Below are positions 57,791-61,414 of a DNA stretch of 64,000 bases, in pieces. The DNA lies in the IMG/VR virus record IMGVR_UViG_3300021431_000087, positions 1-64,000 of that record; one strand, 5' to 3'. The translations under genes and the position numbers were made by a program. This DNA is from a virus. Taxonomy: Duplodnaviria; Caudoviricetes. Every line of letters starts with the position of its first letter. Within the stretch, counting starts at the first letter, position 1. The notes beneath the pieces were generated by a model. The model saw only the letters and a list, made by a program, of their open reading frames with translations. It did not search any database and was not told where the DNA came from.

Positions 57791-58855
57791 TTAAATTAAC
57801 GGACTGTCGTAAGTATTTACTTTAGCAAATTCTTTTTTTAATTCTTTAACCCTATCCATTTCATCGCAATGCGTCACATCAAGGACATAGTTAACACCCT
57901 TTGCATCGTCAGTAATCCTATTGTGAAGTTCTGTTATATCAAGTTCTCCATAGCGGAACATTCCTTGATGCTCATTGTAATGGTTTGTCCTGTCCTCCAA
58001 TATGTCGGAAGAAAGAGCATACCTACTTATCTCATTGCTGATATACCCGTCGCCATGTCTTGTAAGATACGGACGTGTCACATAGTGCGCGGTTATATCC
58101 TCTATTCCCATTTGCCTTGCCATTGAAAGCGCATAGGAAATACCCGTATTGGATGGAGTGGTGTCTTCCGTATCTTTGCCTGTGTCGCAAAGGAGAAGTC
58201 CTTGACCATTCTCGAAAACAATATTGTCGTAGCTATTCATTGTCACAACGTCTGCGGGCTTTGTTAGTGAGTGCATGATCTGACAATCTCGGACGAAATG
58301 TACCTTCAGTATGTCTGAATCCCACGTATCCTTCCATTTTGTCGGTATTTCCATGAAATTCTCGTAGTAAAACTTCACGCTTTCGAGATACTCATATTGT
58401 CTATCTTCATTTTTAACAAAGTCATCAAACAGCATGATAGGCATGCTTCCGTAGCGTTTGATTGTCATCCATATACCCATTCCACATGATGCGTGTCTCC
58501 CTCTTGCTTCTTCGTCTATAAGATTAGCCATAGCGTCATAAGGCGTGCTCCATCTGCATCTTGGGTCGCGGTAGATATGTTTCGGTTTTACTATCAATTC
58601 GCAGTATTCCTTAACGAACTGCATAGGGTTTAGGATATACCATGCTGAATAGTAGTTGTCCGCACCATAACAAGTGCCGCTTCCAAAGTGCTGAAACGTC
58701 ATTGAACCGTCCTTGGTGAGAATGGAGTGCCCACGCTGTGAGCCTCCATTCGTCAAGACATTCAGCACATTTGTGCCAGTTTTTGTAAGGTGGGCGACGA
58801 CCGTACCCTTTCCCTCATCTCCATAATTTGCTCCAATTACTATTCTTGCATTCAT
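57791..58855 (-). CDS. Divergent adenylosuccinate-synthetase (PurA) family ligase
   Basis: 'GANYGDEGKG', 'NGGSQRGH', 'SCGMGI', 'FENGQGLLL', 'TTPSNTG', 'YLTRHGDG', 'FRYGELD', 'VTHCD'; 354 aa. Confidence 0.85.
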   Translation of the reverse strand: MNARIVIGANYGDEGKGTVVAHLTKTGTNVLNVLTNGGSQRGHSILTKDGSMTFQHFGSGTCYGADNYYSAWYILNPMQFVKEYCELIVKPKHIYRDPRCRWSTPYDAMANLIDEEARGRHASCGMGIWMTIKRYGSMPIMLFDDFVKNEDRQYEYLESVKFYYENFMEIPTKWKDTWDSDILKVHFVRDCQIMHSLTKPADVVTMNSYDNIVFENGQGLLLCDTGKDTEDTTPSNTGISYALSMARQMGIEDITAHYVTRPYLTRHGDGYISNEISRYALSSDILEDRTNHYNEHQGMFRYGELDITELHNRITDDAKGVNYVLDVTHCDEMDRVKELKKEFAKVNTYDSPLI

Positions 58856-58861
58856 AGGCCT

Positions 58862-59725
58862 CTACCAACTTATTAAACCACTATTCAGTTTGCTTTCTGG
58901 CTGCTGTTCTACGCCCTCCAAACTTTCGTTGATACACGTTTCTATCACTGCAGCAAGGTTGTTGATTGAAGCTACCTTATAGCGCAGACCAAGAACAGAT
59001 CCAAAGCTGCTGGCTATGTCATTCTGATAAAACTTGTAGCTATCTTGCGGACTATCCACGGCGATGTGGAAGATATCGAACTTTTCAGTTGCCTCCTGAT
59101 AGAGCTGGAGTGTCTCGATGTCGGCCTGTTCCGTACCACCGATAGCTTGGTTCAATTTGTCCACCGGAAGATAGGGATTCAGCGGCTCGTCACCCATAGT
59201 GATGATGATACCTTTCCGATGCTGTTTGTCATAGCAGTCAAGTTTCGTTCGCTTCAATCCCATGTACCAAGCAGCCGTGTAACTCTCGTAGCGATTTCCA
59301 CCGCCACCATGCTCCATATAGACTTTGTCTAACGACTCTACTATGCGGATGTCGCTCTCGAACTGACTCATTTGAATTGGTGCACGGTCGTAAGCCAAAT
59401 CACCTATGCCCATCATACAGAACTCTATGTCCTTAAACTTCTTGTAGAGGTTAAAAATAATGGTGCCCAGAGCTGCCGCAGTCTCGCTACAAGCCTCGCC
59501 CATCGAACCAGTAACGTCAAGACCAAGGATAACAGGAATGGTATTAGGGTGCTCTTCGCTATTGACACATTCCCTTACCTTAAAGTTTCTTGGGTCAAGT
59601 GAAGGGTCTATGTTCCTTGCAATAAACTCCTGTCCTTTAACACGTCCCGTTGAAGAATCATAACTGCGACCAAGACTGGTTGCGTAGGTACGCATTGAAC
59701 TATGTGATACTGTTCCGCTTCCCAT
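58862..59725 (-). CDS. von Willebrand factor A domain protein
   Basis: MIDAS-like 'LGLDVTGSMG', 'GGGGNRYESY', 'ITMGDEP'. Confidence 0.85.
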   Translation of the reverse strand: MGSGTVSHSSMRTYATSLGRSYDSSTGRVKGQEFIARNIDPSLDPRNFKVRECVNSEEHPNTIPVILGLDVTGSMGEACSETAAALGTIIFNLYKKFKDIEFCMMGIGDLAYDRAPIQMSQFESDIRIVESLDKVYMEHGGGGNRYESYTAAWYMGLKRTKLDCYDKQHRKGIIITMGDEPLNPYLPVDKLNQAIGGTEQADIETLQLYQEATEKFDIFHIAVDSPQDSYKFYQNDIASSFGSVLGLRYKVASINNLAAVIETCINESLEGVEQQPESKLNSGLISW

Positions 59726-59829
59726 TACTTCTCCTCCTTTTTGTTTTCATTGTTTGTTACTTTGTTTGTCTGATTCTGAACGTTTTCCTTTGCGTACTCA
59801 GGAAATACGACATTACCTATTGCTCCCAT
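59725..59829 (-). CDS. 34-aa peptide coupled to the vWA gene
   Basis: MGAIGNVVFPEYAKENVQNQTNKVTNNENKKEEK; TAATG overlap with the vWA start, fills the gap. Confidence 0.5.
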   Translation of the reverse strand: MGAIGNVVFPEYAKENVQNQTNKVTNNENKKEEK

Positions 59830-59832
59830 CGT

Positions 59833-60441
59833 TTAATCCTCCTCGCTTGTTCCTGTTTCCTCTTCGTTATCGCTCTCACTGAAGTCAAAGTCAAACATAC
59901 CGTCAAACGGATTTTCCTTGCCGCCCATAAACATCGACATTGCCATCATCTGGCCGAATCCGTTATTGTTCGTGCTATTGTTTCCACCTCCCATCATTTG
60001 AGAGAACATCATCATCTTCATCATATTTCCAAGTCCCCTGCCGCCTTTAAAGGCATTACCAAACATGGAAACGATTTTCCCATAGAAGTATGTACTGCCC
60101 ATGAAAACGTGTCGCTCTGGCACAACCTGTCGAACCTCTGCGTTTTCATAATCTATAACCGTGATAATCTTCTTGTTAGCCTCTGTTACGCACTTTGGCT
60201 TTCCACCTACAAGGATAATGTCGCCAACCTCAACCTTATTTGTTGGAATAACAAAAAACATCTCATCACCTACGTTGAAGCAGAAATTAGTAACATTGGT
60301 TAAAGTCCCTTTCTTTATATTATAGGACTTGTAGCCGTTAGAGCACTTGACAGCGATGCTGCCATTCATAGTAAGACGGCACATGCCTGATGCTATCTTA
60401 CCAAACATACCATTAAAGGAGTTCTGAATGTTTTCAAACAT
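59833..60441 (-). CDS. Hypothetical protein with Met/Gly/Asn-rich C-terminus
   Basis: 'NMMKMMMFSQMMGGGNNSTNNNGFGQMMAMSMFMGG' plus acidic tail. Confidence 0.75.
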   Translation of the reverse strand: MFENIQNSFNGMFGKIASGMCRLTMNGSIAVKCSNGYKSYNIKKGTLTNVTNFCFNVGDEMFFVIPTNKVEVGDIILVGGKPKCVTEANKKIITVIDYENAEVRQVVPERHVFMGSTYFYGKIVSMFGNAFKGGRGLGNMMKMMMFSQMMGGGNNSTNNNGFGQMMAMSMFMGGKENPFDGMFDFDFSESDNEEETGTSEED

Positions 60442-60476: not shown

Positions 60477-60881
60477 TCAAACCTGCGTTAGTTTTTCTTT
60501 CCATAGTTTTGTCCCGTCGAGCGTTGTGCGTCTGCCCAATACCTCTACGAGGTATTTCTTTCCTTTCTCCGCGCCCCATTCCTCACGACCCTCGCGGTAC
60601 TCGATGGCTTTCAACTCGAAGGTCATGCGGCGCGATTCATCATCCTTCTTCGGATAACCCAACGAGAACTGGACGTGGGTGTAATCGGTGGGTACGCCTT
60701 TCTTCGTACAGTGGCTTACGGCACAGTAACCTCCCCAGTCACAATCGCCCTTCGAGCGGCAAAGCCGCTTCACCCAATAGAAGACATCCCGATATTCCTC
60801 CGTCTTCTCGCCAGACTCTATCATTCTGTAGTACTTAGCCTTCAGTGGCTGATACAGGATTTTAATTCTTTGCTGTTCCAT
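60477..60881 (-). CDS. ASCH/PUA-like domain protein
   Basis: 'LKAKYYRMIESGEKTEEYR', 'FSLGYP', 'EWGAEKG'; likely start 60881. Confidence 0.8.
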   Translation of the reverse strand: MEQQRIKILYQPLKAKYYRMIESGEKTEEYRDVFYWVKRLCRSKGDCDWGGYCAVSHCTKKGVPTDYTHVQFSLGYPKKDDESRRMTFELKAIEYREGREEWGAEKGKKYLVEVLGRRTTLDGTKLWKEKLTQV

Positions 60882-60883
60882 AG

Positions 60884-61414
60884 TTATTCCTCCGCTCTTG
60901 ATTTTACACATTGACGCACTATCTGCTCGGTGATGATATTGTTATTGGCCGTAGCCATCTGGTCGAGTTTCTCCACGTCAAATTCCTCGGCAGAGAACTT
61001 GAACTGAATCCAATTTGGCTCAAACTCGCGGTAGTCGAGGAACGTCTTCGGTTCGTCTGTTTCGAGAATGTATTTCACCATGCGCAGCAGACGCTCACCT
61101 GCTGGCTTCGACTCCACAAATCCACTGACATCATACTGGCTGGCCCCACGGCTCTTCCAATACTCGCCGCCGCCTTTAGGACGTTTATCCTTCGGGTCGA
61201 AGCGCACAATGTCACTGTCGAAATACTCAATGGCCACCGATACACCTTTATTCCCAAAACCAAGATTGCCGGAAAAAGGACGATATCTGCGGTTATTGTT
61301 CTCGATATAGAAAGGCACATCTTTGGGGTTAACATGGTTTATCCCGCAAGTGTGCATCCAGTCTTGCACCCACTTTATCAGGTCGTGAAGGGTGATTACT
61401 TCTTGTTCGTTCAT
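60884..61414 (-). CDS. Hypothetical protein
   Basis: 176 aa, operon packing. Confidence 0.65.
   Translation of the reverse strand: MNEQEVITLHDLIKWVQDWMHTCGINHVNPKDVPFYIENNNRRYRPFSGNLGFGNKGVSVAIEYFDSDIVRFDPKDKRPKGGGEYWKSRGASQYDVSGFVESKPAGERLLRMVKYILETDEPKTFLDYREFEPNWIQFKFSAEEFDVEKLDQMATANNNIITEQIVRQCVKSRAEE

Follow-up and report, generated by a model that had tools for sequence, protein, structure and literature searches.

The adenylosuccinate-synthetase superfamily is currently treated as made up of two functional kinds of enzymes, PurA and PurZ/PurZ0. In PurA, the residues in charge of moving a phosphoryl group to O6 of inosine monophosphate (IMP) are Asp13, His41, Lys16 and Gln224; Thr300, Thr301, Arg303 and Arg305 hold the aspartate, and Arg143 is contributed by the dimer partner. 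All 147 phage PurZ/PurZ0 proteins feature Ser at position 13 (GS[TE][GA]KG), and the remaining viral homologs have been used only as "other PurA homologs" rooting the tree (PMC12884076). A homolog of a third kind is encoded in the stretch of viral DNA analyzed here (Duplodnaviria; Caudoviricetes). The stretch, hereafter called the window, corresponds to positions 1 to 64,000 of IMG/VR virus record IMGVR_UViG_3300021431_000087, that is, to the first 64 kb of a 124-kb record with an estimated completeness of 77%, and includes integrase, major head and portal genes. The homolog is the last gene of a compact cassette, and is preceded by a gene for a vWA protein with a putative metal ion-dependent adhesion site (MIDAS). 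A preliminary description of the window, made from the sequence alone, had reported four open reading frames (ORFs) at this place. All four were confirmed, on the minus strand, and all the motifs quoted for them proved correct:

59833 to 60441, minus strand: 202-aa protein, first gene of the cassette, called p202 (ORF list; a homolog is found upstream of the vWA gene elsewhere)
59725 to 59829, minus strand: 34-aa ORF, starting MGAIGNVVFPEYAKEN (ORF list; subclade-specific, not part of the core)
58862 to 59725, minus strand: 287-aa vWA/MIDAS protein (phrog_2971; PHROG match and predicted fold)
57791 to 58855, minus strand: 354-aa PurA-like ligase, called PurAL (PF00709, phrog_1211; Pfam, PHROG and tree)

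The ligase matches PF00709 with 75.1 bits (cut-off 27; E 6e-21) over profile positions 1–336 of 416, and phrog_1211 at E 4e-40. A search of PDB sequences retrieved PurA structures (best E 2e-8) and no PurZ structures. The closest relative, 83% identical, resides in a Prevotellaceae metagenome-assembled genome. Homologs are abundant, and sort into 1,160 clusters at 50% identity when the threshold is set at E<=1e-30, and into 4,839 at E<=1e-3. In a maximum-likelihood tree, 39 rows of the ligase family are split from six PurA and five PurZ sequences with a Shimodaira-Hasegawa-like approximate likelihood ratio (SH-aLRT) of 99.5. The five PurZ rows form a branch of their own (99% support), located on the PurA side of the split. 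The conclusion that the ligase family is a third clade of the superfamily, neither PurA nor PurZ, is well supported by this tree and by the active-site map described below; that the window ligase is neither a normal PurA nor a PurZ had been proposed in the preliminary description.

Active-site residues were mapped in an alignment of E. coli PurA (whose numbering is used), five references for PurZ/PurZ0 and 145 members of the family. The GDEGKG P-loop is conserved in 144/145 members (Asp13 and Lys16 in 144, along with Glu14), and all these residues are present in the window ligase. All five PurZ/PurZ0 references feature Ser in place of Asp13. His41, Glu221, Gln224 and Asn295 are found in all 145 sequences, Thr239 in 144 and Arg143 in 136. 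Other positions are changed, and the replacements are largely fixed in the family: Asn38 to Gln (144/145), Ala39 to Arg (127/145), Thr129 to Cys (126/145), Val273 to His (144/145), Gly298 to Asn (137/145), Thr301 to Gln (145/145), Lys331 to His (127/145). The residue at the Asp333 position is D in 76 and N in 65 of the 145 sequences. The aspartate loop is reshaped as a whole. Thr300 is replaced by an aromatic residue and Thr301 by Gln, Arg303 is S, T, E or K, Arg304 is deleted, Arg305 is L, F, I or M. In the window, the motifs GDEGKG, GGSQRGH and THCD, as well as TNHYNEHQGMFR, all align to PurA motifs as first described; at the aspartate loop the window ligase features H296, Q297, M299 and F300, and the PurA set (Thr300, Thr301, Arg303, Arg305) is not found. 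Residues contacting the IMP 5'-phosphate in PurA (Asn38, Thr129) and the GTP-specificity motif TKLD are changed as well, so that the pockets for the 5'-phosphate and the nucleoside triphosphate (NTP) base are predicted to be altered. E. coli residues ~341–410 are missing throughout the family, and also in PurZ; a Tyr-x-Ser element, aligned to Ser414, is retained in the family.

Since the residues for phosphotransfer are kept and those of the aspartate loop are replaced, the activation chemistry would be retained with a different amine, and the ligase may aminate a 6-oxopurine nucleotide with an amine other than aspartate. The loss of the aspartate-carboxylate binders, noticed early in the window ligase, extends to the whole set of 145 sequences, and the non-aspartate amine suggested at that time can be viewed as a reasonable reading of residue conservation.

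It is highly improbable that the ligase is a PurZ-type enzyme, making a modified purine (2-aminoadenine or another N6-substituted base) for phage DNA. The architecture is compact and PurZ-like, and the matching PHROG is labelled as 2-aminooxy adenylosuccinate synthetase, but Asp13 is found in 144/145 members against Ser in all the 147 phage PurZ/PurZ0 (PMC12884076), and the family lies outside the PurZ clade. DatZ or MazG homologs were not found in the 124 kb of the record, where the Z-cluster families PF12917 and PF03819 were unmatched; the PF04447 control was silent too, and the record is 77% complete. The same cassette resides in bacterial chromosomes under apparent NrtR control (see below), and for this reason modification of virion DNA does not fit. 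The label of phrog_1211 has spread to many RefSeq Bixzunavirus records. It appears to be a mis-annotation, because Asp13 is kept where PurZ features Ser13.

The ligase gene is strictly associated with the vWA gene. The latter is located directly upstream, on the same strand, in 79/80 IMG/VR viral loci and in 73/78 cellular loci, the five exceptions being at contig edges. Among 50,697 phage records, each of the two proteins matches 219 records, and the taxon breakdown agrees. The pairing is found also in Rhizobium, Vibrio and Mycobacterium phages. Carriers include phages of four bacterial phyla as well as bacterial chromosomes; about 200 sequenced mycobacteriophages, many gut and rumen phages, and the chromosomes of Lachnospiraceae are among them. 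Conservation of the vWA linkage, on which the initial proposal depended, is therefore nearly without exception, and the vWA protein may be regarded as an obligate partner of the ligase, as the linkage suggests. In the 80 viral loci only three genes are conserved, and every other gene is found in 22 loci or fewer. The module of four genes first proposed must be reduced accordingly: three genes form a widely conserved cassette, and the 34-aa ORF is confined to the closest subclade.

Some loci deviate from the compact arrangement. In eight viral loci (L027, L028, L031, L035, L042, L089, L091, L092) inserts of ~0.75–1.1 kb, holding one to three ORFs (e.g. a 357-aa ORF in L089, a 254-aa Cys-rich ORF in L042), separate the vWA and ligase genes, and in Mycobacterium phage Yassified an annotated HNH endonuclease lies under the vWA match. 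These look like insertions of selfish elements into a conserved target. In two high-GC actinobacterial contigs (L096, L097) the coding sequences of vWA protein and ligase are spread across two or three frames, and false "fusion" proteins (P0393, P0394) result, in which some stretches are out of frame and rich in Arg; the splits are either indel errors of long reads or pseudogenes.

The vWA protein matches phrog_2971 (E 4.9e-49). It matched no Pfam family at E<=0.1, and a PDB search with its profile retrieved nothing meaningful. The fold is nevertheless predicted with good quality (AlphaFold2 mean pLDDT, the predicted local distance difference test score, of 87). The vWA domain spans residues 58–274 and is integrin beta-I-like: comparison with integrin beta I domains gave Z 15.4 (VIA; root mean square deviation 5.0, 207 residues aligned) and Z 15.1 (root mean square deviation 3.0, 192 residues aligned), and a Foldseek E of 1e-7. 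The putative MIDAS metal site is complete by sequence pattern, as D70-V-T72-G-S74 and G178-D179-E180 are invariant, and T150 is conserved in at least 90% of the proteins. The early assignment as a vWA/MIDAS protein is thus borne out by predicted fold and MIDAS pattern, though not by Pfam. In the model, the domain is preceded by an ordered extension of 57 residues, of which residues 1–3 are flexible; the disordered C-terminal tail has a conserved I-x-W at its end.

The vWA N-terminus is the most distinctive feature of the protein. A Met-Gly start, singled out already in the window protein, is found in 156/156 full-length homologs, and the pattern MG.[GA].[WFYV] in 154/156, over 107 distinct 12-mers. 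Gly4 and Trp6 are nearly invariant, positions 3 and 5 are free to vary. Long forms are rare (4 in ~7,000 homologs). Two of them, fusion-like in appearance, are frameshift artefacts and were discarded; of the others, one has a native MGCGSW start and one is an odd duplicate. No genuine fusion masking the vWA N-terminus was found among the ~7,000 homologs; apart from this absence, the long forms do not speak for or against a free N-terminus.

These features would be accounted for by covalent protein purinylation, the idea of the preliminary description, which we consider unlikely on the whole. The alpha-amine of the vWA N-terminal Gly, exposed by Met removal, would act as the nucleophile in place of aspartate, and this terminus (in the subclade of the window, alternatively the 34-aa peptide) would be joined to a purine nucleotide via N6, giving a protein-nucleotide conjugate. 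Purinylation agrees with the constrained Met-Gly start and the free positions 3 and 5, with the flexibility of residues 1–3 in the model and the lack of masking fusions, with the apparently obligate pairing of vWA protein and ligase, and with the replacement of the carboxylate-binding arginines by residues that are hydrophobic, aromatic or Gln. Met-Gly is also the start of the 34-aa peptide. An invariant N-terminus would, however, equally fit a docking or plug role. Mutual information with average product correction between the vWA N-terminus and the ligase was not above background (best ranks 125–750 of 68,471), in a set of 144 pairs with an effective number of sequences of 86, in which the signal is dominated by a few phylogeny-driven columns. 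To our knowledge, a stoichiometric protein substrate is without precedent in the adenylosuccinate-synthetase family.

The slot upstream of the vWA gene is occupied by a p202 homolog in 78/80 viral and 56/78 cellular loci. The N-terminus of p202 is an all-beta domain, with an SH3/KOW-like barrel (residues ~63–126) and a conserved G-K-P-K hairpin. The barrel is followed by a low-confidence segment rich in Met, Gly and Asn, by a conserved F-D-G-M-F-D-F motif, in which D184 is invariant, and by an acidic tail (AlphaFold2 pLDDT 65 for the whole protein, 70–91 for the beta domain). No Pfam, PHROG or PADLOC family matched p202, and a PDB profile search gave nothing meaningful. In the Atlas p202 is an orphan viral family, as only unnamed viral clusters were retrieved. 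A remote homolog is encoded by Vibrio phage phiKT1024 (hhalign 94.9%), and another is probably present in a Rhizobium phage. The closest fold, domain I of eIF5A/EF-P (best Z 7.6), is a generic barrel, a likeness too weak to assign a function, and was rejected as the identity of p202.

In loci lacking p202 the same slot is filled by a J-domain/kinase-like protein, whose homology to Sebata gp260 (hhalign 98.8%) extends from end to end. The two proteins never co-occur. A relationship between them was considered and rejected (hhalign probability 0.4%), and they seem to be same-slot analogues rather than relatives. In Sebata a polynucleotide kinase is encoded two genes upstream of the J-domain/kinase-like gene. 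In a gut phage (L005:119-4427) the cassette is closely preceded by genes for an RlaP nucleotidyltransferase, a CCA-adding enzyme (PolyA_pol and HD domains) and a YqeY-like protein, a possible tRNA-repair cluster.

The 34-aa ORF has a GGAGG ribosome-binding site of its own and an acidic tail, and its stop codon overlaps the vWA start (TAATG). Homologs (31–33 aa) were found in three loci only (L016, L017, L021), and in 98/138 loci the gap between p202 and vWA genes is <20 nt, which leaves no room for such an ORF. The peptide had been put forward as a possible substrate of the ligase; as a general substrate it is ruled out, because it is absent outside this narrow subclade.

With p202 taken into account, a broader possibility can be envisaged, that of a new post-translational modification in which IMP or a related 6-oxopurine nucleotide would be activated at O6 with NTP, and its C6 then coupled to the vWA Gly or, in the three-gene cassettes, to the lysine of the p202 hairpin. 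The N6-linked conjugate of protein and nucleotide would act in phage-host conflict linked to nicotinamide adenine dinucleotide (NAD) and ADP-ribose. We hold it as a tentative idea, with chances well below even.

In the window the cassette is embedded in a long array of packed, co-directional genes, with spacers of 35 nt on the upstream side and 13 nt on the downstream side. Promoters and terminators scanned around it gave signals no better than those of shuffled sequences, Bacteroidetes-type promoters being outside the coverage of the scan tool. The gene directly upstream (60477–60911, minus strand) encodes a 144-aa phrog_625 protein (E 2e-19), and its neighbourhood with the cassette is not conserved elsewhere.

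Bacterial copies reside among ordinary chromosomal genes in Lachnospiraceae/Eubacterium isolates. An additional, full-length canonical PurA was found in 5/5 cassette-bearing genomes (E~1e-163). That the bacterial ligase is an extra paralog, and not the purine-pathway copy, is well supported, and to this extent the early suggestion that the module does not serve purine supply holds. A gene encoding a Nudix domain and an NrtR winged helix is present in 52/78 cellular loci, usually directly downstream of the ligase gene, and in 0/80 viral loci. The Nudix box is intact; the protein also matches AraR_C. The palindrome T[AT][GA]TCA-N3-TGA[CT][AT]A occurs 44 times, against 0.7 expected, in these cellular loci. 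Thirty of the 44 palindromes are found at most 250 nt ahead of the cassette's first gene, in many cases as two copies in tandem; they are distributed over 21 loci, 19 of which carry the regulator. They are never found upstream of viral cassettes. The palindrome is a conserved candidate operator of the NrtR-type regulator.

Genes of NAD and ADP-ribose metabolism flank other copies. Of the 80 viral loci, 17 include a nicotinamidase-like gene and 14 a Prs-like gene; an actinobacterial copy is flanked by NrtR, PARG and isochorismatase genes; the Rhizobium phage copy has NARP2-type genes in its vicinity, and the Vibrio phage copy has a NADAR gene. In 17/80 viral loci (e.g. L035:1625-2452) an SPFH/Band_7 gene precedes the cassette at a distance of a few kb.

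These data bear on the simplest explanation, namely that the ligase is an ordinary auxiliary PurA boosting AMP synthesis from IMP, aspartate and GTP during infection, the vWA protein being incidental or a chaperone. The PF00709 match is above threshold, Asp13, His41, Lys16 and Gln224 are kept, databases label relatives as PurA-like adenylosuccinate synthetase, and non-PurZ viral homologs are taken as PurA by default both in PMC12884076 and in a 2025 metaGPA preprint. An auxiliary PurA is nonetheless very unlikely. All of T300, T301, R303, R304 and R305 are changed, to replacements fixed in the family, and the clade is separate from PurA. A canonical PurA is already present in cellular carriers, the vWA and ligase genes are almost never found apart, whichever of the two is taken as the starting point, and bacterial copies seem to be under an NrtR-type regulator and not under purine control.

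In Lachnospiraceae bacterium AC2031 (L175:7298-11191) the ligase gene is followed by a gene for a 1,297-aa STAND-like NTPase, with weak AAA_16 and NPHP3_N matches, which replaces the NrtR-like gene. The cassette could be seen as a defence, exclusion or toxic effector, in which the vWA protein and the third partner would sense a signal, and the ligase would deplete IMP/GTP or make a toxic or signalling N6-substituted nucleotide; phages would carry it for superinfection exclusion and not for counter-defence. The compact, mobile format and the variable chromosomal contexts in Lachnospiraceae isolates, once beside the STAND-like NTPase, agree with such a role, as do the sensor-like vWA protein, the J-domain/kinase-like partner, and the possession of a putative repressor and operator. 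However, ligase, vWA protein, p202 and J-domain/kinase-like protein are all without match in PADLOC-DB 2.0 (2023 library) at E<=0.01, large phages of the virulent type, such as Bixzunavirus, carry the cassette with great frequency, and it shows no linkage to nucleases, pores or other classic effectors. An effector role is in our opinion quite unlikely.

The explanation that we favour, and for which we consider the chances evenly balanced, is as follows. The region is a mobile cassette built around two core genes, the first for a MIDAS-type vWA protein and the second for a compact ligase of the third superfamily clade. Judging from the conserved residues, the ligase would bind Mg-NTP and a 6-oxopurine nucleoside phosphate, move the gamma-phosphate to O6, and then displace the O6 phosphate with an amine. 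The amine would not be aspartate, because all the side chains holding the carboxylates are replaced by family-fixed residues. The vWA protein, as the linkage suggests, would dock on the ligase, and either gate it via the MIDAS and the Gly-x-Gly-x-Trp N-terminus, or present this N-terminus to the catalytic pocket as a substrate; p202, with its acidic F-D-F tail, could plausibly supply a ligand for the MIDAS. The neighbourhoods point to a cassette that would respond to, or act on, nucleotide stress linked to NAD/ADP-ribose. If so, the phage cassette would serve as an accessory counter-measure during infection, and not for bulk AMP supply. A ligase devoid of aspartate-binding residues and paired with a vWA protein is probably devoted to nucleotide or protein modification rather than to ordinary adenine supply; a counter-defence role is suggested by gene neighbourhoods only.

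Several points weigh against this explanation. The chemistry of the ligase is read from residue conservation alone, and loss of Arg303 and Arg305 is by itself no proof that aspartate is no longer used: PurZ, too, aligns poorly in the aspartate loop, and uses aspartate nonetheless (PMC12884076). NrtR-family regulators can respond to ligands other than ADP-ribose, such as arabinose in the AraR branch. The nicotinamidase and Prs neighbours of viral copies share the same ~17 loci, and may represent a single lineage. In the record of the window phage (124 kb, 77% complete) no Nudix, isochorismatase/nicotinamidase, NAPRTase/Nampt or Prs genes were detected, and the window itself thus gives no sign of the NAD link. 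The cassette could instead be a defence or exclusion effector: in chromosomes it has ordinary genes around it and, in one genome, a STAND-like NTPase as neighbour.

The data define a third, very large clade of the superfamily, encompassing thousands of clusters, with a fixed and distinct active site and an apparently obligate vWA partner. Databases label its members as PurA-like or, wrongly, as PurZ. Identification of the substrates would reveal either a reaction of nucleotide amination or a modification joining protein and nucleotide, new in both cases, and would probably also add a participant to the arms race that phages and bacteria conduct around NAD/ADP-ribose. Culturable carriers exist, as Bxz1-type phages growing on M. 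smegmatis and Lachnospiraceae isolates.

Full-text literature searches did not find a description of the cassette, which can be compared with known systems component by component. With PurA (EC 6.3.4.4; E. coli PDB 1ADE/1CG0 family) the ligase shares the fold family and Asp13, Lys16, His41, Gln224, Thr239 and Arg143, and the 6-phosphoryl-purine chemistry is probably retained. It differs from PurA in the replaced aspartate loop, in the N38Q, A39R, T129C, V273H and K331H changes, in the missing region of residues ~341–410, and in having a vWA partner. With PurZ/PurZ0 (PDB 6FM1, 7ODX, 7VF6) the ligase has in common the superfamily, the phage location, the compact size (~350 aa) and the PHROG label. 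PurZ features Ser13 and NAGH, the ligase family Asp13 and QRGH, and the family falls outside the PurZ clade; a vWA partner was found in 0/5 PurZ reference loci examined.

The partner has the same Rossmann-like fold, and the D-x-[ST]-x-S...T...D pattern, of integrin beta I-like and bacterial vWA-MIDAS proteins (BatB, the BchD vWA domain). Integrin beta I domains bind short acidic peptide motifs. The cassette protein differs from known vWA-MIDAS proteins because of the 57-residue Gly-x-Gly-x-Trp extension, and because it is paired with a PurA-like ligase and not with a MoxR/AAA+ ATPase.

Bacterial copies resemble NrtR regulons, with which they share the gene for a Nudix and NrtR-winged-helix protein and the palindromic operators. 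We know of no PurA-like ligase or vWA protein in any known NAD pathway. Some phage copies lie near nicotinamidase-like, Prs-like or NARP2-type genes, and are in this respect reminiscent of NARP1, NARP2 and NARP3, but the NARP-defining enzymes (Adps/Namat, Nampt/Nmnat, PnuC/NadR) are not part of the cassette. In the window phage no PF14572, PF04095 or PF00293 match was found, the record being 77% complete. NARP3, made of PnuC and NadR (PMC13464706), was compared as a possible identity of the cassette, and is unrelated.

The p202 barrel is closest to domain I of EF-P/eIF5A, and carries the G-K-P-K hairpin; the match is generic (Z 7.6) and not accompanied by a sequence relationship. EpmA-EF-P, PafA-Pup and MccB-MccA are pairs of enzymes and protein substrates in which an amine is ligated after phosphoryl or adenylyl activation. 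By analogy, the cassette may be likened to these pairs, as its ligase is accompanied by a small protein or partner protein in which one residue, terminal or in a loop, is invariant.

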